From contig JBGQNO010000003.1 in the NCBI GenBank assembly GCA_041501125.1, positions 2,399 through 66,398 on the forward strand: 64,000 nt of DNA, read 5' to 3'. The DNA comes from Candidatus Nanoarchaeia archaeon (GTDB lineage Archaea > Nanobdellota > Nanobdellia > Pacearchaeales > GW2011-AR1). The notes below the pieces were generated by a model, which searched no databases, had not been told where the DNA came from, and worked only from the letters and a program-made list of their open reading frames with translations. Position numbers and translations under genes: made by a program. Below are positions 3,173 to 55,722 of this stretch, one piece after another; position 1 is the stretch's first letter; each line of letters begins with the position of its first letter.

Positions 3173-3736
3173 TTGAAAATGGCTAAATCTTCTTTAAAAG
3201 TACAGAATATTGTCGCGACTACCTCACTTAATGTTTCAGTTCCTCTTACAAAGCTTGCAAGGAGCCACGGCAATACAGAGTATAATCCAGAGCAATTTCC
3301 AGGACTTGTTTTAAGGATTCCAAAGCCCAAGTCAGCAGTTCTTGTATTTAGTTCAGGAAATCTTGTATGCACTGGAACAAAGAGCATTGGACAGGTGAAA
3401 CAAGTGATTAAGGCTGTTATAAGACAGCTGGGTAAGATTGGCATAAGGGTCAAGGACAAGCCAAAAATCAAAGTGCAGAATATAGTTGCAAGCGGCAATA
3501 TTGACATGCGCTTGAACCTGAATCTTCTTGCACTTGAGCTTGAAAATACAGAATATGAGCCAGAGCAATTTCCAGGGCTTGTCTATAAGCTGACAGATCC
3601 TACAGCGACATTCCTTCTCTTTACGAATGGAAAACTTGTCTGCACTGGAACAAAGAACAGGCCGCAATTAGAAGATTCAATGAAAAAGCTTATACACAAC
3701 ATAAAAGAAGCGATTAAGAGAATCAAGCAGCGTTAA
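3173..3736 (+). CDS. tbp: TATA-box binding protein
   Basis: Two TBP repeats: QNIVATTSLN..EQFPGLVLRIPKPKSAVLVFSSGNLVCTGTKS and QNIVASGNID..EQFPGLVYKLTDPTATFLLFTNGKLVCTGTKN. Confidence 0.95.
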   Translation: MKMAKSSLKVQNIVATTSLNVSVPLTKLARSHGNTEYNPEQFPGLVLRIPKPKSAVLVFSSGNLVCTGTKSIGQVKQVIKAVIRQLGKIGIRVKDKPKIKVQNIVASGNIDMRLNLNLLALELENTEYEPEQFPGLVYKLTDPTATFLLFTNGKLVCTGTKNRPQLEDSMKKLIHNIKEAIKRIKQR

Positions 3737-3927
3737 GCGTTCTAATTTATTAATGTTTATTAATGGGAGAATACTCTTTTACATGCGGGAATGTCAACAC
3801 ATTAAGATTTAACGCTGATAAAACGTCGACGGCAAATTTAATGAGCTTTTCATCTTGATAGTATCTTTTGCTATTGTTATTTTAATCAATAGAAATCCAT
3901 TTAAACATCCAGCTTCTTTGTTTTGAT

Positions 3928-47707: not shown

Positions 47708-48214
47708 TTGAGCGTTCTTTTGAATTCTATGATATCTCAAGAGAGATGCGAGAAACTTTTGAAAAAAGTCAGAAAGGATTTTCCCATACTTAATAACAGT
47801 AGAATAATCATAAAAATAGAAAAAATGAAAACTGGCTCTATGGGAGCTTACAAAAAGCTTTTTCATTATCTTTTAATTATAGACCCTATCAAGTACAATG
47901 ATGCCACTAATCAACAGATTTCAGGAGCATTAGCACATGAACTAATGCATTTTGAAACTTACGAGAAATATGGCTGGAAAAGATACATTTTGGAATATTT
48001 TGCTTATCTTTTTTTTAAAAGATTGATGACTCAGTATGAGAAAGAGAATGATAGACAAGTCATACAAAGAGGATATGCGAGAGAATTATATGCTAACCGG
48101 GCTTACAGAATTAAGAAAATATCTGCATCAGAATTTAAAAAGATTGGAGCTTGTTATTTGCTGCCTAATGAAATTAAGGCCTATGCAAAGAGAATAGGAA
48201 AATGGAGAGTATAG
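47708..48214 (+). CDS. Hypothetical protein with HExxH motif
   Basis: GALAHELMHFETYEKYGW; second HELMH-containing ORF within 1 kb. Confidence 0.4.
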   Translation: MSVLLNSMISQERCEKLLKKVRKDFPILNNSRIIIKIEKMKTGSMGAYKKLFHYLLIIDPIKYNDATNQQISGALAHELMHFETYEKYGWKRYILEYFAYLFFKRLMTQYEKENDRQVIQRGYARELYANRAYRIKKISASEFKKIGACYLLPNEIKAYAKRIGKWRV

Positions 48215-48215
48215 A

Positions 48216-49196
48216 ATGATACTCGGAATTGAATCAACTGCGCATACATTTGGTGTTGGCATTATTGAGAAAGGCAAGATACTTGCGAATGTCAAGGATA
48301 CTTATACAACTGAGAAAGGCGGCATAATTCCTGTCCAGGCTGCAAAGCATCATAAAGAGAAAGCTGAACAAATTTATCAGAAAGCGCTTGAATTTGCTGA
48401 TGTAGACGAGAAAGAAATTAAAGCAATTGCATACTCGCACGGACCTGGGCTTGCGCCTTGCTTGGCTGAAGGTGTCAGATTTGTAAAGAAACTTGCTGAG
48501 AGGCTGCAAGTACCGCTGGTGCCTGTTAATCATTGTGTTGCTCATTTGGAAATTGGCAGAATGACTGGGTGCAAAAATCCTGTCTTGCTTTATGTTTCTG
48601 GCGCTAATACTCAGATAATTTCCTATGAAGCAGGAAAGTTCAGGATTTTTGGCGAGACTCTGGATGTTGGAGTTGGAAATTTTATTGATACATTCGCGCG
48701 TTACTTGGGACTCGGATTTCCAGGAGGACCTAAGATTGCACAACTTGCCGAGAAAGGCAAGAAGTATATTGAACTTCCGTATTCTATAAAAGGAATGGAT
48801 GTTGCATTTTCAGGTATGTTGACTAATCTGAAACAAAAAATTGGTAAATATTCTACAGAAGATTTGGCTTATAGCATGCAAGAGACTGCTTTTGCAATGC
48901 TTGTTGAAGCAAGTGAGCGGGCAATGGCTCATATAGGCAAAACTGAATTGTTGCTCGGTGGCGGAGTTGCATGCAATACTAGACTGCAGGAAATGTGCAG
49001 GATTATGTGCAAGGAGCGGGCAGCAAAATTCTTTGTTCCTGATTGTTCCTTGCTGGTTGATAATGGCGCGATGATTGCTTATCTTGGAGAAATAATGTTT
49101 CATGCAGGAATTCATGAAAACTGGGATAAAGCAGATTTCAATCCAAGAGAAAGGACTGATGACATTGATGTTAAATGGCGTTCTCTGGTGCGTTAA
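48216..49196 (+). CDS. kae1: Kae1 (tRNA t6A37 threonylcarbamoyltransferase), not fused to Bud32
   Basis: MILGIESTAHTFGVGI, HCVAHLE, GGGVACN motifs. The last 4 codons plus stop are supplied by the left terminal repeat of the inserted element. Confidence 0.9.
   Translation: MILGIESTAHTFGVGIIEKGKILANVKDTYTTEKGGIIPVQAAKHHKEKAEQIYQKALEFADVDEKEIKAIAYSHGPGLAPCLAEGVRFVKKLAERLQVPLVPVNHCVAHLEIGRMTGCKNPVLLYVSGANTQIISYEAGKFRIFGETLDVGVGNFIDTFARYLGLGFPGGPKIAQLAEKGKKYIELPYSIKGMDVAFSGMLTNLKQKIGKYSTEDLAYSMQETAFAMLVEASERAMAHIGKTELLLGGGVACNTRLQEMCRIMCKERAAKFFVPDCSLLVDNGAMIAYLGEIMFHAGIHENWDKADFNPRERTDDIDVKWRSLVR
49173..49180. repeat. Putative 8-bp target-site duplication, left copy (AAATGGCG)
   Basis: Identical direct copy at 53965-53972, both just outside the inverted repeats. 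Confidence 0.6.
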
Positions 49197-49199
49197 GTG
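49181..49199. repeat. Left terminal inverted repeat
   Basis: TTCTCTGGTGCGTTAAGTG; the reverse complement of the right end is ATACTCTGGTGCGTTAAGTG. Confidence 0.7.
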
Positions 49200-49243
49200 G
49201 GCTTTTTAGTAAGGATTAAAAAGTTAAGTTTTCTTTATCCTTT

Positions 49244-49408
49244 ATGGCAGTTCCAACAAGAAAACAAGTAGATAGAAATATGAGATTGAGACAAATGTGG
49301 AAAGAACTAAATAAAAAAGAAAAATCAGAGTCACAACAACTTACAGAAGAAGAACATAAAAAAAGGCTTGAAATGTTAAAAAATATAGGTATCATAAAGC
49401 AACAATAA
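49244..49408 (+). CDS. 54-aa hypothetical protein (first gene inside the element)
   Basis: MAVPTRKQVDRNMRLRQMWKELNKKEKSESQQLTEEEHKKRLEMLKNIGIIKQQ; stop is 2 nt before the endonuclease-candidate start. Controller-protein role is speculation. Confidence 0.3.
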   Translation: MAVPTRKQVDRNMRLRQMWKELNKKEKSESQQLTEEEHKKRLEMLKNIGIIKQQ

Positions 49409-49410
49409 AA

Positions 49411-50235
49411 ATGACAGACAATCCAGAAGAAATAAAACAAAAGATAAAAGAGCAGTTTAAAAAACTACTATCTGAAAAACCTACTTTGATTAAAGGATTA
49501 GATAATCCTGAAGCTTATGGACATGCTGCAGGAACTCCTTTAGAAGAATGGGTTAAACAAGAACTTAAAATTCATAAATGGAGAGTATACTTTCCTAATG
49601 AATTTTTAGCTGAGATTTTTAATAAAATAAAGGACATTCCGAAGATATTAATTTTCTTAAAATCATGTTGGTGGAATAGACTAATATTCACGCCAAAACA
49701 ACTTCTTGCTTTCAGGGAAGGGAAAGAAATACAAAGATGGCAACAAGAAGGGGCAGATTTGGTTTTATTTTATGGAGAAGATATTATAAAAGAGCCAAAT
49801 AAAATCATTCTTCTGAATGTTAAGTCGCATGAGTCATCAAGAGATAGCAGACCTCCAAATATCATGTCGGCACAAAGATTACTTGAATTTTTCTCTAATT
49901 TATCAGATATGAAGAATAGTGAGGAAATGCTTAAATTATCTGAGTTATGGTTTTTGGGTGGAGTTTATAGTGCTACTTCTGGTGGTGGAAAATTAGAAAG
50001 TATTACAATCAAAGATTTATTTAGATTAGATGTTTCTAAAATCCCTCAAATTAACTTTGATGCTGCTATTCAAATTCAATGGCATGTAACAGATATGATA
50101 GAAATATCTCAGACTAAGAAAAAGTTTGTAAATAGTTTAGCTGATGATTTCTTAAAAAGATGGAATCATCATTCATGCTCAAAACAAAAGAAATATGAGT
50201 CTTTGGTTAAAAAAATAAAGTCAATTACTAAATAA
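49411..50235 (+). CDS. Putative Type II restriction endonuclease
   Basis: Convergent with, and overlapping by 8 nt, an N6-adenine MTase. GADLVLFYGED..IILLNVKSHE resembles a PD..(D/E/N)xK core. No family recognised. Confidence 0.5.
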   Translation: MTDNPEEIKQKIKEQFKKLLSEKPTLIKGLDNPEAYGHAAGTPLEEWVKQELKIHKWRVYFPNEFLAEIFNKIKDIPKILIFLKSCWWNRLIFTPKQLLAFREGKEIQRWQQEGADLVLFYGEDIIKEPNKIILLNVKSHESSRDSRPPNIMSAQRLLEFFSNLSDMKNSEEMLKLSELWFLGGVYSATSGGGKLESITIKDLFRLDVSKIPQINFDAAIQIQWHVTDMIEISQTKKKFVNSLADDFLKRWNHHSCSKQKKYESLVKKIKSITK

Positions 50236-51793
50236 CTTTATATAACTTTTTTACTAATGAATTGACAATTTGTTCTTGTTTGTTATCATTTCTTATTAAG
50301 TCAGTCCTTTCTATTATCTCATTATAAAGTTTTACTTCTTCTTGGTTGTTCCAATTTATACTTCTTATTGGTATCACTGACAAAGGTTTCTCTGAGAACT
50401 CTAAAACTCCGCCACGCCTAAGACCCCGATATTTAAGCCAACTGAATATCAAATCTGAGTTTAGTATAGCCAAAAAGTATCTTAAATCCTCTTTAACATT
50501 ATTTTTCTTTACGAGCACTGTTACATCTTGGGTTATGTAGTAATCTCCTTCTACCAAAGAAAATCTGACATATTGCCGTTTATCAAATCTTTCTTTGCAT
50601 GGAACAACTATCTTATATTGGTTCTCTATAAGTTTCTTATTTCTAAGAAATACCCAGTGCCACCATGGAATATCTTTATTATAACTATATCTTTGCGTTA
50701 GTTTATCTTTATATTTTAAAAGATGCTTTTTTATATTAGGCAAAGTGTTTAAATCTTCTTCTGAGAATATGCCATCGTTTAAGTAAGCATAATAATAGAA
50801 TCCATCAGAAAAATATTTTTTAAGATTCTTAGCTTTTACAACCTCTATTAAAAAGTTTTTTTCTCTTTCTGTAAAGTTCTGAGTATCATTAATTTGAAAC
50901 GCTTTATCTAATCCACTGACCATTCCATTACCTATGTCTACAAAATCACCTAAAGTAGAATTAGCGGAACTTTCAATCTGCTTAATTAATGGCTCTATTT
51001 TAGGTGGCAGTGGTTTCCAAGGTTCTCCATCAATAAATTGTTGATGCAAGTATGACTCATAGTCGTCATTATCTACTCCTATACCCTGTTTTAATCCATT
51101 AAGCATATTGCAAATGTCATTTATTACTTTTTGGGTTATACCTTTTTTGCTCTTAACATTAATTACTTTTATTTTGTTATTTTGTTTAGTTTTAACAAAT
51201 CTAAATATTAAGATATTAGATGAAACTTTATCAAAGACTTTCATTTCCCCGAAATTAATCATGTGGGTTATTTCCCCCTCATTTGCTAATTTGTCTCTAA
51301 TTATTTTGGCATGTAAAGTTGAAGTCCAAAATGTAGGAGTGATAAATATTAATTCTCCACCATTTTCTAATAAATCAATTGAGAGCAGAATAAATGGATA
51401 GAGCAAGTCATTTAAACCATTTATTTTTGTTTTCCAATAATCATCTTCTTTCAATTTCTTTTGAGTGTCAGAATCTATATTTTTCCATCTTACATATGGC
51501 GGATTACCAATTATTACTTGAAATTTCCTGTCTGGTCTTTCAAATAAAGTGTCTTTATAACTTATTTTTACATCCGAGTTATTTTTTAAAGTATTATCTA
51601 TTTCAAAAGCAGTAATATCATCAAACTTCTTTTCTTTTAAAGATTGCAGAAAAATACCTTCCCCCGCACATGGTTCAAATATAGAAGGTTTTTTAGATTC
51701 TATTAACTCAACCATAAAATCTGTTACCTCTTTTGGAGTAAAGTATTGTCCTTTAATCTTTTTCTTTGCCATGATATATTCTAGTTTCTTCAT
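50228..51793 (-). CDS. N6-adenine DNA methyltransferase (gamma class, TaqI/Eco57I-like)
   Basis: GQYFTPKEV, motif I FEPCAGEGIF, motif IV IIGNPPYV, large C-terminal target-recognition domain. Confidence 0.85.
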   Translation of the reverse strand: MKKLEYIMAKKKIKGQYFTPKEVTDFMVELIESKKPSIFEPCAGEGIFLQSLKEKKFDDITAFEIDNTLKNNSDVKISYKDTLFERPDRKFQVIIGNPPYVRWKNIDSDTQKKLKEDDYWKTKINGLNDLLYPFILLSIDLLENGGELIFITPTFWTSTLHAKIIRDKLANEGEITHMINFGEMKVFDKVSSNILIFRFVKTKQNNKIKVINVKSKKGITQKVINDICNMLNGLKQGIGVDNDDYESYLHQQFIDGEPWKPLPPKIEPLIKQIESSANSTLGDFVDIGNGMVSGLDKAFQINDTQNFTEREKNFLIEVVKAKNLKKYFSDGFYYYAYLNDGIFSEEDLNTLPNIKKHLLKYKDKLTQRYSYNKDIPWWHWVFLRNKKLIENQYKIVVPCKERFDKRQYVRFSLVEGDYYITQDVTVLVKKNNVKEDLRYFLAILNSDLIFSWLKYRGLRRGGVLEFSEKPLSVIPIRSINWNNQEEVKLYNEIIERTDLIRNDNKQEQIVNSLVKKLYKVI

Positions 51794-51797
51794 CTTT

Positions 51798-52727
51798 TTA
51801 ATTATTTATACTGCTCAATTTAATTAATTCAAGCCATCTATTCGGAGTCTGAAATTGTAAAGAAGGTATGGCTAACTCGCTTGGAGTTTTGCCATTCAGA
51901 GATTCATGCTTTCTTATGAAATTGTAATAAACTTCCAAGCATTTCATAACTGCATAAGCACTTTCAACCGAGCCGTGCATACCTCTGAAGCCAGTTGTTC
52001 TTTGTCTGATAGAATTATGCAATCTCTCAACCCAGATGTTAAAACCCTCACCTTTGCTTTGAGTAACTATTTTATGCTGAACATTATATTTTCCAGTGTG
52101 CCTGTCATATCCAAAAGTCTTTTTTACAATATTTGTATAAGCAGGAAAGCCGTCTGTTGTAACTATCTTAATCCCATCTGCTTTGTTTTTGATGTTGGAC
52201 AATAACCTCTTTAGATTAGCTTGGCTTCTATTCTTTACATAAGCTGAATTAATCATAAATCTTGATTTAACATCTATCCCATCAATAAACCAATTCTTAT
52301 CTATTCCTCGCCTTTGCTTATGACTCTTTCGCCTGTGAAACTCCATCTCATCTACTTCTATATAACTGCCTGTCTGAAGTTTCAATTTGTCTGTAAAAGA
52401 AGCCATCTTTAAGCTAAACTTTCTAATCCATCTCAAAATAGTGCTATGGTCTGAATTATGTGGGAAGAACGCCTTAAAGTGTTCCTGAACTCCTCTTGTG
52501 CTTAATCCTCTGCAAAACAAGTCTAAGGCACAGGTTATCTTTTGAGGGCTATTTCTCATTCTAAAGAATGAGTCTTGAGGTATAAACCTTTTAGAACAGG
52601 ACTTACAAAAGTATCTTTGCCTCTTTCCATGTGCTTCTGTCTGCTTGAATCCTCGTTTAACTATCTCTTTACTTTTGCAGTGAGGACATTCTATACTCTG
52701 TATCATAATATATTCAGGTACCACCAC
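51798..52727 (-). CDS. DDE transposase with N-terminal zinc finger (IS6/IS1-like)
   Basis: CPHCKSKEIVKRG..QRYFCKSCSKRF zinc finger (as in IS1 InsA). VDEM.., TTDGFPAY, ERLHNSIRQRTTGFRGM..AYAVMKCLEVYYNFIRKHESLNGKTP resemble IS6/IS240 and IS1 catalytic regions. Confidence 0.8.
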   Translation of the reverse strand: MVVPEYIMIQSIECPHCKSKEIVKRGFKQTEAHGKRQRYFCKSCSKRFIPQDSFFRMRNSPQKITCALDLFCRGLSTRGVQEHFKAFFPHNSDHSTILRWIRKFSLKMASFTDKLKLQTGSYIEVDEMEFHRRKSHKQRRGIDKNWFIDGIDVKSRFMINSAYVKNRSQANLKRLLSNIKNKADGIKIVTTDGFPAYTNIVKKTFGYDRHTGKYNVQHKIVTQSKGEGFNIWVERLHNSIRQRTTGFRGMHGSVESAYAVMKCLEVYYNFIRKHESLNGKTPSELAIPSLQFQTPNRWLELIKLSSINN

Positions 52728-52866
52728 TATTTAAGTCTTTCTACATACATAAAAATGAAGAATGAATATAATGAGATTATTCAATACAGATTTTAACTCA
52801 TTTTAATATATCTTCATTTTTTTAAGAACCAAAAGATTTAAAAGCAAGGTTTCCCATCAAATTACT

Positions 52867-53607
52867 ATGGCAGACAAGATATTATCGAGACCCCCATATC
52901 CGAGTACAGGACAGGCAGACGCAATCTTAGATATTTTTAGAAGAGTTAGTCCAAAAAAGATAGACTCCAAATTTGTAGCCGAGAATGAAATAGCCACAGC
53001 ACCCAATGCCTCAAACGTAGTCAATTTCTTAAAATACTTGGGTATAATTGACTCTGAAAATAATGTAAAAGACGAAGTTGCAAATAAACTTAGATTAATT
53101 GGAGCAGAAAGGGATAAATATATTGCTGAACTTATTAAAAAAGCATATAAGGATATATTTGAGGGAGTAAATTTACAACAGGCTAGGAGAGAGGACTTAA
53201 TTAACTTCTTTATCCATGCTTATAACTATGGTACTGCTCCAGCAAAGAACTCCTCATTATTATTCTTACATTTATGTGAAAAGTATGGTATTCCAATTTC
53301 AGATGAACTTAGAAAGAAGACGCATACAGGAGTAACTGGAACAAACAGAATTGAAAAAAAGACAGTTCAGTCAAGGTCAAAAATTGAGAAAAGTTTCTCG
53401 GTTAAACCTGAACAAGATAATGAACAGAAAGTAGGAGTTATAATTTTGAGTATTAGGGGGAACGGATTAAATAAGCAGGTAGAAGCAAAAAATGCCAACG
53501 AACTTCAGAAATTGTATGAGGGAAAATTTAAAGAATTTATAGAAGCAGGAAAGCATTTATTTGATGACGAAGAACTTACAACTGAAGAAAAGACAGAGGA
53601 TTTATAA
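52867..53607 (+). CDS. Hypothetical cargo protein
   Basis: Track ORF 246 aa. The N-terminal half faintly recalls DUF5343, which I cannot verify. Acidic C-terminus. Confidence 0.35.
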   Translation: MADKILSRPPYPSTGQADAILDIFRRVSPKKIDSKFVAENEIATAPNASNVVNFLKYLGIIDSENNVKDEVANKLRLIGAERDKYIAELIKKAYKDIFEGVNLQQARREDLINFFIHAYNYGTAPAKNSSLLFLHLCEKYGIPISDELRKKTHTGVTGTNRIEKKTVQSRSKIEKSFSVKPEQDNEQKVGVIILSIRGNGLNKQVEAKNANELQKLYEGKFKEFIEAGKHLFDDEELTTEEKTEDL

Positions 53608-53698
53608 ATTATAGTCAGACGTGACACATAAGGGGACACACCGAGGGAAAGCGTACATTCCAAGTATGTTAGTACCTCAATGTCTTATGTTTTTAATG

Positions 53699-53875
53699 CT
53701 AGTCTTTTGTTTCTTTTAAATCTTTCTCAATAACAATCTTTTCTTTTTCAATTTTAGCTTTCAAATCCTTGCCTAAAAGATTAGAATCCTCTACTACTTT
53801 TTTAGGTAGATTAAGAACATACTTATCATATTTTGTGTCTCCAACTTTTTTTGAAAAAACTTTTAGGATTTTCAT
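53699..53875 (-). CDS. AbrB/SpoVT-like small DNA-binding protein (58 aa)
   Basis: MKILKVFSKKVGDTKYDKYVLNLPKKVVEDSNLLGKDLKAKIEKEKIVIEKDL fits the looped-hinge-helix pattern (x-I/L-P-K-x-x-x-x-x-L-G..G-x-x-L..I-x-I-E-K). Below the track cutoff. Confidence 0.5.
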   Translation of the reverse strand: MKILKVFSKKVGDTKYDKYVLNLPKKVVEDSNLLGKDLKAKIEKEKIVIEKDLKETKD

Positions 53876-53944
53876 AAATCTTTAAGGTACTGATTGTTTT
53901 TAAGTTTTATGGTACCATAATAAAAAATAAGGATTATTTATGGA

Positions 53945-53964
53945 CACTTAACGCACCAGAGTAT
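53945..53964. repeat. Right terminal inverted repeat
   Basis: CACTTAACGCACCAGAGTAT. Confidence 0.7.
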
Positions 53965-53972
53965 AAATGGCG
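53965..53972. repeat. Putative 8-bp target-site duplication, right copy (AAATGGCG)
   Basis: Followed by ATAG, which completes CGA TAG (Arg-stop) when joined to the left flank. Confidence 0.6.
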
Positions 53973-54124
53973 ATAGGCTTTTAAACCGCGAATTTCTCGC
54001 TTTAACATGACAGCTCAAAACCTTTGGAGGTTAGTTCATCTCGCGAAGAGATAATTGCAGCTGCAGCTTTCTAAGTTCTGACAATGTTTTTATACCTAAA
54101 TTCGGTAATTATAAATATAGATAT

Positions 54125-54196
54125 GGCGGATGTAGTACATTGGTAGTACGCTCGGCTGTGGCCCGGGCGAAGAGGGTCCGATTCCCTCCTTCCGCT
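54125..54196 (+). tRNA. tRNA-His (anticodon GUG) with genome-encoded G-1
   Basis: G GCGGATG TA GTAC ATTGGTA GTAC G CTCGG CTGTGGC CCGGG CGAA GAGGG TCCGATT CCCTC CTTCCGC T. It has one U6-U67 mismatch, T at position 73 and a T-loop with C55. Confidence 0.8.
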
Positions 54197-54216
54197 TATT
54201 TAATTGAGGTGAAATA

Positions 54217-55368
54217 ATGGAAAGTGTCAAAGGATTCAAGGATTTTACAGGCCAGGAGGCCTTGAAAAGAGAGAAAATTAAAAGTGTTTTAGTTGGAATC
54301 TTCAAGAGTTACGGCTTTGAGCCATCTGAGACACCTGTTATTGAATATGAGGAGTTTGTCAAAAGTCAGGGTGCTGGTGATGAAGCAATCTCTGATGTTT
54401 TTAAGCTTGAGGACAGAGGTAAAAGAAAACTTGCATTGAGATATGAATTTACCTTTCAATTAAAAAGAATCTCGCAGAATAAAAAACTTCCTTACAAACG
54501 GTATGAGATTGGAGAAGTTTTCCGGGATGAGCCTTCAACTGGAAACAGGTTCAGGCAGTTTACACAATGCGATGCTGATATTGTTGGTGCAAGTATAAAG
54601 GATGAAGCAGAAGTTCTTGCAATGGCAGGCAAGATATTAAAACAACTTGGAATCAAGGCTGAGATTTATGTTAACAACCGCAAGCTGTTGAATGAAATTC
54701 TTGAAAAAGAAAATGTTAAGGAGAGGGCAGAAGTCATAAGAGAGATTGACAAACTTGACAAGCTGCCAGAGCAAGTTGTCAAAGAAAACCTGAAAAAGTA
54801 TAATGCTGGAAAGATTCTTGATATTTTCAAAAAACCAGAAAGTTATTTTAAAAAATATAAGGCATATTCTGAAATTCTGGAACTGAAAAAATGCTGCAAG
54901 AACTATGGTGTTGAAGTTAAATTTCAAGCTTCATTATCAAGAGGACTTTCTTATTACAATGGAACAATTTTTGAAATAAAAACAAAAGAGATTAAAGAAA
55001 CCATATGCGCTGGCGGAAGCTACCTTGTAAATGGAAACCAAGCAACTGGAATAAGTTTTGGATTGGAAAGAATTTCTTCACTTGCAAAACTTGCAGTTAA
55101 GGAAGAAAGGATTGTGATTATATCGATTGCCGAGGATAAAAAAGCTATAAACCTCGCTGAAAATTTGAGGCAAAAAGGAAAAGAGGTTGTTGTGATGTAT
55201 GGAAAGCCGACAAAAGCGCTTGAATTTGCCAATTCTTATTCAATCAGATATGTTATTTTCTTAGGCAGTGAAGAAGTCAAGAAGAAGAAAGTCAAGCTAA
55301 GAGACATGAAAACAGGCATTGAGAGACTGGTTTCTGAGAAAGAGCTTGACAGCAAGTTTGATAAGTAA
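54217..55368 (+). CDS. hisS: Histidyl-tRNA synthetase
   Basis: VKGFKDF, motif 2 FRDEPSTGNRFRQFTQCD, motif 3 region CAGGSYLV..GISFGLERI, C-terminal anticodon-binding domain. SD GAGGTGA upstream. Confidence 0.85.
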   Translation: MESVKGFKDFTGQEALKREKIKSVLVGIFKSYGFEPSETPVIEYEEFVKSQGAGDEAISDVFKLEDRGKRKLALRYEFTFQLKRISQNKKLPYKRYEIGEVFRDEPSTGNRFRQFTQCDADIVGASIKDEAEVLAMAGKILKQLGIKAEIYVNNRKLLNEILEKENVKERAEVIREIDKLDKLPEQVVKENLKKYNAGKILDIFKKPESYFKKYKAYSEILELKKCCKNYGVEVKFQASLSRGLSYYNGTIFEIKTKEIKETICAGGSYLVNGNQATGISFGLERISSLAKLAVKEERIVIISIAEDKKAINLAENLRQKGKEVVVMYGKPTKALEFANSYSIRYVIFLGSEEVKKKKVKLRDMKTGIERLVSEKELDSKFDK

Positions 55369-55428
55369 TACCACAAACTTTATAAACGAAATTTTCAAGG
55401 TTTAGATATCCAATGATAGGAGGATACA

Positions 55429-55722
55429 ATGTCTTCTCTATACGAAGTAGTCGAAAAAGCAAGAAAAACCGGAAAAGTAGAAAAAGGAATAAACGAAGTT
55501 ACAAAATCTATCGAGAGAGGGGATGCCAAATTTGTTGTTTATGCTTCTGATACAAATCCAAAGGAGATAATCCAGCACGTGCCTATTCTATGCAAGGAGA
55601 AAAAAATACCTTGCGGAGCAGTCGACAGCAGGCAGAAATTAGGAATTGCGGTCGGCATTGCTGTTTCTTGTTCTGCAGTAGCTATTACAGATCCAGGTGA
55701 AGCAAAACTGCCTAAGGAGTAA
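55429..55722 (+). CDS. rpl7ae: Ribosomal protein L7Ae
   Basis: [54 protein letters not shown]. Confidence 0.85.

Follow-up and report, generated by a model that had tools for sequence, protein, structure and literature searches.

The question raised by this locus is how a pair of restriction-modification (R-M) genes came to lie between the archaeal gene kae1 and the transfer RNA (tRNA) gene that natively follows it. The locus is part of a stretch of 64,000 nucleotides, here called the window, from contig JBGQNO010000003.1 of a Candidatus Nanoarchaeia archaeon (GCA_041501125.1). A 4.8-kb transposon is inserted in the last codons of kae1, an essential gene, where it has duplicated 9 bp of the target. 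An earlier note, made from the sequence alone, had proposed a cargo transposon with one transposase, terminal repeats and a target duplication, carrying an R-M system in a DPANN-like archaeon. This is supported by exact repeats and by empty sites in relatives. The segment is read here as an autonomous DDE transposon, similar in build to an insertion sequence (IS) and carrying passenger genes, with a probability of about 0.9. It belongs to a large archaeal transposon family whose members almost always carry passengers, often defence genes.

The element spans positions 49181-53963 of the window (4,783 bp). A perfect 17-mer, CTCTGGTGCGTTAAGTG, is found at 49183-49199 on the forward strand and at 53945-53961 on the reverse strand, and exact alignment of both ends bears out this inverted pair and the direct repeat beside it, as described earlier. 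There is no third match to the 17-mer across the window at up to 3 mismatches (0.05 expected), and no further copy of the end turns up in the window, whether the 17-mer is allowed 3 mismatches or a 22-mer 7. Two matches by chance arose in none of 100 dinucleotide-preserving shuffles. The 8-bp direct repeat of the earlier note, AAATGGCG, is present at 49173-49180 and 53965-53972, but the target-site duplication is really 9 bp long, TAAATGGCG, and perfect. With 9 bp, the spacer between the duplication and the 17-mer is 2 nt on either side (TT on the left, TA on the right), so the inverted repeats stand in register and the former asymmetry of 2 versus 3 nt is gone. The terminal inverted repeats are real; their length is 24 bp, as judged from end conservation across the family, and not the 19-20 bp first estimated. 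The two ends, TTCTCTGGTGCGTTAAGTGGGCTT and TACTCTGGTGCGTTAAGTGTCCAT, match at 20 of 24 positions, the perfect 17-mer included. An interior judged AT-rich by eye proves to have a GC content of 0.310, compared with 0.378 in the remaining window, and lies below all 218 equal-sized control windows (minimum 0.349). The 7-mer GGCTTTT occurs at 49200-49206, just inside the left end, and at 53976-53982, to the right of the target duplication. A meaningful link between these two copies was considered and set aside as coincidence.

The unoccupied state of the site is found in nature. Excision of 49181-53972 in silico gives ..GAT GTT AAA TGG CGA TAG, so that kae1 closes as ..DVKWR-stop in the way first predicted, and this is the sequence of the empty sites in three relatives (loci L133, L001 and L002). 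The Kae1 proteins of these relatives (P0242, P0002 and P0003) are ~97%, ~95% and ~89% identical to that of the window. Their loci read kae1 ..GTTAAATGGCGATAGGCTTTTAAACC.., tRNA-His, hisS, with TAAATGGCG present once only, together with the native stop. The gene ends ..VKWR-stop and passes straight into the tRNA-His region (kae1..GTTAAATGGCGATAG..tRNA-His-hisS). When 49181-53972 is removed, the window aligns to L133 in one uninterrupted 2,355-bp match of 95.2% identity that spans the junction.

The insertion has replaced the stop codon of kae1 with four extra residues (SLVR). The protein of the window ends ..DVKWRSLVR, and its last four codons and stop (TCT CTG GTG CGT TAA, 49182-49196) come from the left transposon end; the native gene would end ..AAA TGG CGA TAG. 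That the left end encodes this tail had been suggested from the sequence, and the Kae1 homologues agree. A W-[RK] terminus is conserved in all 44 others inspected (one extra residue in 4 of them), and none natively ends KWRSLVR. Independent assemblies also show the occupied state, which excludes an artefact of assembly. One of them (L004, GCA_041480385.1) has the occupied site and matches the window at 99.67% identity over 9.2 kb, both junctions included. A Logan contig (L005) matches 2.2 kb of the interior of the element at 100%. A third contig encodes a Kae1 (P0241) with the SLVR tail that differs from the window protein by one residue.

Table 1. Features of the element and its surroundings (positions in the window).
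Feature	Position	Strand	Evidence or remark
kae1, target gene	48216..49196	+	TIGR03722 arch_KAE1, 2e-130
Target-site duplication, left copy, TAAATGGCG	49172..49180	.	Single-copy in L133, L001, L002
Terminal inverted repeat, R-M side, TTCTCTGGTGCGTTAAGTGGGCTT, 24 bp	49181..49204	+	Holds 17-mer 49183-49199; family consensus through position 24
54-aa open reading frame (ORF), 2 nt upstream of endonuclease gene	49244..49408	+	ORF list; called as gene in L004
HincII-family type II restriction endonuclease, 274 aa	49411..50235	+	PF09226, 6.5e-10, 39.2 bits (cut-off 23.7)
Gamma-class N6-adenine DNA methyltransferase, 521 aa	50228..51793	-	PF07669 1.7e-20; PF02384 1.5e-18; PF12950 2.4e-07
Zinc-ribbon DDE transposase, 309-aa ORF; start probably ATG 52706 (302 aa)	51798..52727	-	NCBIfam IS6 5.3e-18, IS1 2.3e-17
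Imperfect 25-nt palindrome between divergent transposase and DUF5343 genes	52751..52821	.	Arms 52751-52775 and 52797-52821; 80% complementary, 21-nt spacer
DUF5343 protein, 246 aa, passenger in slot upstream of transposase	52867..53607	+	PF17278, 5.8e-08
AbrB/MazE-like small protein, 58 aa, adjoining transposase-side end	53699..53875	-	18-member cluster among first 50 elements
Terminal inverted repeat, transposase side, reverse complement of TACTCTGGTGCGTTAAGTGTCCAT, 24 bp	53940..53963	-	20/24 with other end
Target-site duplication, right copy, TAAATGGCG, then ATAG carrying native kae1 stop	53964..53972	.	
tRNA-His (GTG), native downstream neighbour of kae1	54125..54197	+	ARAGORN; Rfam tRNA 55.9 bits
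hisS, after tRNA-His, native downstream neighbour of kae1	54217-55368		

In the orientation of the transposase, the element consists of a 24-bp end, the AbrB-like gene, the DUF5343 gene on the opposite strand, the transposase, the methyltransferase, the convergent endonuclease, the 54-aa ORF and the other 24-bp end (Table 1). The layout first read from the ORFs is confirmed throughout. The endonuclease and methyltransferase genes overlap by 8 nt, and a 4-nt gap separates the ATG of the methyltransferase (51793) from the end of the transposase stop (51798). A candidate PD-(D/E)xK endonuclease is sharpened by PF09226 to a member of the HincII family, and it aligns to HincII chains in the PDB over 228 residues (E 1e-8). 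Equivalents of HincII D114 and K129 are present, and the position of D127 is occupied by N (LLNVK). Among 1.84 billion representative proteins scanned, 63 were homologues. The ~25 closest share the motif (L/I)(I/L)N(V/A)K, with the D114 equivalent nearly invariant and the K129 equivalent invariant. As the N is conserved across this D..N-V-K subfamily, it is a subfamily trait and not decay, and activity of the predicted enzyme is plausible. The L-I-N-V-K-S-H motif of the subfamily is an unusual variant of the PD-(D/E)xK site.

The assignment of the second gene to the gamma class of N6-adenine methyltransferases stands on PF07669 (74.2 bits, cut-off 25.3), PF02384 (67.6 bits, cut-off 20.4) and an NPPY motif from residue 97. 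The protein has a TaqI-like C-terminal target-recognition domain, and its PDB matches are adenine methyltransferases (7e-18) and M.TaqI (1e-12). The adjoining endonuclease and methyltransferase, both above family cut-offs, make up a type II R-M pair of HincII-like kind. Sites of HincII-like specificity (GTYRAC) number zero inside the element. The 246-aa ORF of the earlier note is likewise real; once listed as unknown, it now falls in DUF5343. Its status as a conserved family gene was considered and rejected, since the genes that occupy its place in L032 and L009 are dissimilar to it. The AbrB-like label of the 58-aa protein holds at the level of the family, with PF04014 matched by 14 of the 18 members of its cluster (best 3.2e-07), but not for the window's own copy, which has no match. 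The six best PDB profile matches of the 58-aa protein are all MazE/AbrB, though weak (E 0.07-0.2). The 54-aa ORF, for which Pfam and NCBIfam gave no match, may be a small regulator. The palindrome between the divergent transposase and DUF5343 genes may be an operator or promoter region to which a regulator binds.

The transposase had been described as a zinc-finger DDE enzyme, and both parts of this description are sustained. Its four-cysteine zinc ribbon passes the IS1/IS1595 domain model NF050000 (32 bits, cut-off 28), as matched by 34 of 34 relatives. Residues D126, D192 and E234 are intact, and they are invariant in an alignment of 34 relatives. Profile models place IS6 and IS1 first in a near tie, both far below their cut-offs: 65.5 bits against 125 for IS6 (NF033587) and 63.6 against 100 for IS1 (NF033558). 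All 34 relatives match the IS6 model, with a best E of 1.5e-23. PF13610 (DDE_Tnp_IS240) does not match the window transposase at E <= 0.1, and most relatives of 60-85% identity carry a precomputed match to it. In a PDB search with the transposase profile, ISCth4 was the only hit (E 8e-4). More than 900 homologues exist, and those with names come from Pacearchaeota and Nanoarchaeota.

Relatives of the element were collected from species-representative genomes (79 loci) and from metagenomes (46 loci). An element was delimited by two exact copies of a 9-mer, one to each side of the transposase gene, that lie immediately next to an inverted repeat. The first two relatives opened, L006/L032 (transposase 80% identical) and L007 (83%), have the same ends, with the 9-bp duplications CCTATCAGA and GCCCCACCA. 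In total, 56 non-redundant elements were delimited in Pace-, Woese- and Nanoarchaeota, namely the kae1 element and 55 others; most of the loci that could not be delimited are interrupted by contig ends. All 56 have an exact 9-bp duplication, each with a different 9-mer (GC 0.37). The tenth base beside the duplication agrees in 32%, which is the chance level and shows the duplication to be exactly 9 bp. The ends follow a common 24-bp consensus. Agreement between the two ends holds through position 24 and then falls to ~0.3, and T1, C3, T6, G7, T9, T13, A15, G19 and T24 are invariant or nearly so. Element sizes range from 2,070 to 8,342 bp (median 3,636 bp), and a bare insertion sequence of ~1.2 kb is not among the 56.

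Some genomes hold two members of the family with different cargo. Examples are L069 and L078, both on CAVZZS010000011.1, L011 and L020 in MAG226, and L022 and L114 on one 565-kb contig (JBAZNI010000001.1 / Ga0265297_10000040). In one case the two members lie ~22 kb apart on the same contig. Among L009, L010, L038, L054, L074 and L092, several contigs stop ~55 nt outside the transposon ends, and the flanks of two of these share no duplication. Such stops are the behaviour of an assembler at polymorphic or multi-site repeats, which hints at ongoing mobility in the populations concerned.

The insertion into the end of kae1 is typical of the sites used by the family. Enough flanking sequence was available for 47 elements, of which 29 are intergenic (ORFs called mechanically) and 9 are no more than six codons from a stop. 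Positions drawn at random from these flanks are intergenic in 20% and near a stop in 3%. The combined figure is 38 of 47 (81%) versus 22% at random (binomial p = 3e-17). This bias may reflect target choice or the survival of harmless insertions, and the data do not separate the two.

The cargo was surveyed in the first 50 delimited elements, which contain 133 passenger ORFs of at least 100 aa. DNA methyltransferases are the commonest passenger Pfam families (N6_N4_Mtase 14, N6_Mtase 8, Eco57I 3 and D12 2). Other domains include RAMA, HNH, MvaI/BcnI, specificity-subunit and Fic/DOC (4). At least 20 of the 50 elements encode a DNA methyltransferase, as counted by motif IV alone, (D/N/S)PP(Y/F/W), and cross-checked against Pfam and PADLOC counts. 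A strict expression requiring two motifs gave an undercount of 12 elements and was replaced. Cargo changes readily between close relatives, as transposases that are 80-84% identical carry entirely different R-M systems. Thus L006/L032 carries an EcoRI-type methylase and a GmrSD/HNH protein, and L007 an N4/N6 methylase with a RAMA domain and two ORFs. At the DNA level, only the transposase gene is common to the kae1 element and its relatives; the closest of them also share the AbrB-like gene and end. The same combinations of cargo and transposase recur at different sites in different genomes (L037/L046; L007/L039/L081/L017), from which it follows that whole elements move with their cargo.

The abutment of transposase and methyltransferase is also recurrent. 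A methyltransferase co-oriented with the transposase, and starting -20 to +24 nt from its stop, is found in 11 of the 50 elements. These 11 span at least three Pfam families (N6_N4_Mtase, Eco57I/N6_Mtase and EcoRI_methylase). Another common component is a gene for a small DNA-binding protein, located by one end or just upstream of the transposase in 34 of the 50. The kinds are AbrB/MazE-like (18), CPKCKS zinc ribbon (15) and ribbon-helix-helix (3), and two elements have both an AbrB/MazE-like and a CPKCKS gene. In L066 (7294-7893, minus strand) and L085 (7297-7890, minus strand) the CPKCKS zinc-ribbon protein is fused to a Fic/DOC domain. These two loci also carry an AbrB/MazE-like gene, an arrangement that resembles a toxin-antitoxin pair.

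A complete CRISPR-Cas locus is carried by one member, a 7,341-bp element in Nanoarchaeota MAG226 (L011, 2975-10315; JBFMDT010000003.1) with the duplication AAATAATGG. Its array has at least nine copies of a 37-nt repeat (3225-3916). The genes encode a 579-aa Cas12f1-like protein, Cas4, Cas2 and Cas1, and they adjoin the transposase, an N4/N6 methyltransferase and a 188-aa ORF. Other members carry a TrpRS/TyrRS-like class I aminoacyl-tRNA synthetase (L063), a flavoprotein/aldolase fusion with a thioredoxin-reductase-like enzyme (L051) or a PMT-type glycosyltransferase (L055). A module of three genes is common to L037, L046 and L061, and its products include a concanavalin-like lectin protein of 700-800 aa and a PRC-barrel protein. 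The reading of this module as a type I R-M system was discarded, as methyltransferase motifs are absent and the Pfam matches are lectin-like and PRC-barrel.

The proposed mechanism begins with the transposase, which would bind both 24-bp ends through its zinc ribbon and helix-turn-helix region. It would then join the 3' ends to target strands 9 bp apart, and repair of the gaps would produce the duplication. The element would offer two passenger slots, one from the small regulator gene to the transposase and the other from the transposase to the far end, and passengers would be exchanged freely between related elements. In the kae1 element the downstream slot would be filled by the HincII-family type II R-M system. 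The tight junction of transposase and methyltransferase suggests one transcript. The methyltransferase is therefore probably co-transcribed with the transposase, with methylation occurring whenever the element is expressed. The endonuclease may make loss of the element costly, through post-segregational killing, and may also guard against foreign DNA. The AbrB-like protein is probably a transcriptional regulator of the element.

Several points weigh against this account. The transposase falls below the curated cut-off of every IS family model. Its AlphaFold model is poor, with a mean predicted local distance difference test (pLDDT) score of 64.9 and a catalytic region below 50; a fold search with this low-quality model placed DDE transposases first, with ISCth4 at the top (template modelling score ~0.3). 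The endonuclease has N where HincII has the catalytic D127, and depletion of GTYRAC in the window is not significant (25 sites, 34.9 +/- 6.3 expected). The cargo of the family is not exclusively defence, as the aminoacyl-tRNA synthetase, redox enzymes, glycosyltransferase and lectin-like proteins show. The co-transcription, the role of the AbrB-like protein and the post-segregational killing are all inferences. A second copy of the exact element at another site was not found in the window or in the genome and metagenome collections, so current activity of the kae1 copy is not shown. The best metagenome relative is 83% identical (protein), and matches of 100% or close to it represent this locus in further assemblies.

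The alternative that survives best concerns the mechanism step only. It holds that the element moves in the manner of IS26/IS6, through replicative cointegrates that are resolved by homologous recombination, with neither cut-and-paste nor copy-out-paste-in. This is a real possibility, with the odds leaning against it. Like IS6/IS26, the element has one DDE transposase, with a basic residue 7 positions past the catalytic E (E234..R241). IS6 is the best NCBIfam and Pfam-type similarity of the DPANN-family transposase. It is the best profile match in 34 of 34 relatives, and many relatives carry PF13610. The ends of IS6 elements are ~14 bp, start with GG and follow the consensus GGTTCTGTTGCAAA with a conserved G7 (PMC6807381). 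The end core of the DPANN family, TCTGGTGC at positions 4-11 (TCTG(G/T)TGC across the family), fits this consensus at 7 of 8 positions, with G7 invariant. However, the family duplicates 9 bp in 56 of 56 elements instead of 8, and its ends are 24 bp long, begin T-n-C and lack GG tips. The transposase misses the IS6 cut-off by a wide distance and has a zinc ribbon of IS1/IS1595 type. Directly repeated copies or cointegrate-like arrangements were absent from the loci examined. IS6 elements have 8-bp duplications and a GG start and measure ~0.7-1.8 kb (PMC7986276, PMC6807381), and a passenger gene is on record for a single IS6 element (PMC7986276), whereas the DPANN elements are 2.1-8.3 kb long and essentially always have passengers. 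The archaeal branch of IS6/IS26 and the branch with zinc fingers are treated by Harmer & Hall 2019 (PMC6807381) and Varani et al. 2021 (PMC7986276). Archaeal 'IS6' elements have longer ends, often without GG, and ISPfu5 is listed with a 9-bp duplication. According to Harmer & Hall 2019, they deserve a family of their own (PMC6807381).

The transposase and the end core resemble those of IS6 and IS1 but fall outside the formal definition of either family, and the comparison with IS1 covers that family outside the ISMhu11 subgroup. The duplication in IS1 is 8-9 bp (9 bp), and the ends are ~23 bp with TG at positions 6-7. Similar to IS1, the DPANN family has a 9-bp duplication and an N-terminal zinc ribbon that passes the domain model, and its IS1 score lies near that for IS6. 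Unlike IS1, the transposase is encoded by a single unframeshifted ORF and scores below the family cut-off, and the ends have no GG tips.

A second alternative accepts arrival by transposition and regards the element as a relic, now immobile and domesticated, which the host keeps for its R-M system. This is unlikely. It would explain why each assembly with the element has it once, at this one kae1 site, and why the genome and metagenome collections gave no other site. The ends also differ at 4 of 24 positions, but the same positions also differ from one end to the other in other bounded elements. The full-length transposase ORF keeps all residues invariant in the family, the DDE triad included, and the duplication has no mismatch. 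The element is missing from strains whose flanks are ~95-97% identical, which points to a recent insertion. A third explanation, a genomic island inserted by site-specific or homologous recombination with the repeats as attachment sites, or else an assembly chimera, could appeal to the tRNA gene ~150 bp downstream, tRNA genes being classic integration hotspots, and to GGCTTTT at the left end and right flank, but it is effectively refuted by the absence of any integrase or recombinase in the element (Pfam, NCBIfam), the untouched tRNA, the 56 unrelated 9-mers at which related elements sit and the same junctions in three independent assemblies.

An autonomous transposon with passengers has precedents, since insertion sequences with passengers, bacterial transposon-like R-M units and Tn7-like defence cargo are already known. 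Transporter insertion sequences (tIS), or unit transposons with passengers, include the IS1595-family groups ISNha5 and ISNwi1. The kae1 element and its 55 relatives resemble these in having one transposase, inverted-repeat ends, a short duplication and unrelated passengers. They differ in that passengers are the rule (0 of 56 bare), with two slots and a dominance of methyltransferases and R-M systems, in the frequent gene for a small DNA-binding protein and in their DPANN hosts. The term tIS is used in PMC7986276. Furuta, Abe & Kobayashi 2010 described transposon-like R-M units with imperfect inverted repeats, an 8-bp duplication and a related empty site (PMC2853133). These are a few isolated bacterial cases, mostly without a transposase, although one unit has a transposase-like gene (COG3677), and no archaeal case passed the filter (PMC2853133). 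The kae1 element is similar, in that imperfect inverted repeats and a short duplication enclose its R-M genes and relatives have an empty site. In contrast, an intact transposase accompanies the R-M genes here, and many different R-M systems travel in one kind of vehicle. Tn7-like transposons carry variable cargo rich in defence systems, R-M and CRISPR-Cas included (Benler et al. 2021, PMC8649781), and the DPANN family shares this trait. Unlike those large, multi-protein, site-specific elements, it uses one small transposase and arbitrary 9-mers.

A description of the DPANN family, or of DPANN transposons with R-M systems, was not found in the searchable literature (the topics of ISMhu11, tIS and Cas14 in transposons included). 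This is consistent with the view of the earlier note that the layout is undescribed, and the abutment of transposase and methyltransferase has since proved recurrent. What is apparently new is a DPANN transposon family with a zinc ribbon, a uniform 9-bp duplication and obligatory cargo.

The main value of the kae1 element is that it opens onto this widespread, cargo-obligate family. A wider reading is tentative and, taken whole, rather doubtful. It would make this a distinct DPANN-wide family, neither IS6 nor IS1, built for gene shuttling with two slots and a resident regulator, serving as a main route of exchange for R-M systems and even whole Cas12f CRISPR loci and with a functional coupling of transposase and methyltransferase. 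If true, the coupling would tie self-methylation to expression of the element, so that the R-M system could establish safely after each jump. Arguments on how R-M systems pass from one genome to another have long relied on indirect evidence. At kae1 the carrier can be seen directly, together with its ends, its duplication and an empty site. Across the family, this one type of carrier transports many different R-M systems, toxin-like genes and an entire Cas12f CRISPR locus. In DPANN archaea, whose genomes are very small and which rely on hosts, a compact shuttle with a single transposase for defence and surface genes would help to explain the turnover of their accessory genomes. For IS classification the family is also a clear test, since IS6-like ends and catalytic core are here united with an IS1-type zinc ribbon and a 9-bp duplication. 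Its small transposase is a further asset, an archaeal enzyme with defined 24-bp ends and a tolerance of at least 7 kb of cargo.

Around the insertion, an Rfam scan of 48000-55500 gave tRNA-His as the sole match. Upstream of kae1 the window has one 168-aa ORF (47708-48214). The relatives have two or three tandem paralogues of ~150-160 aa in this place (L133 3052-4007; L002 6603-8007), so that copy number varies in the region adjoining the insertion site.

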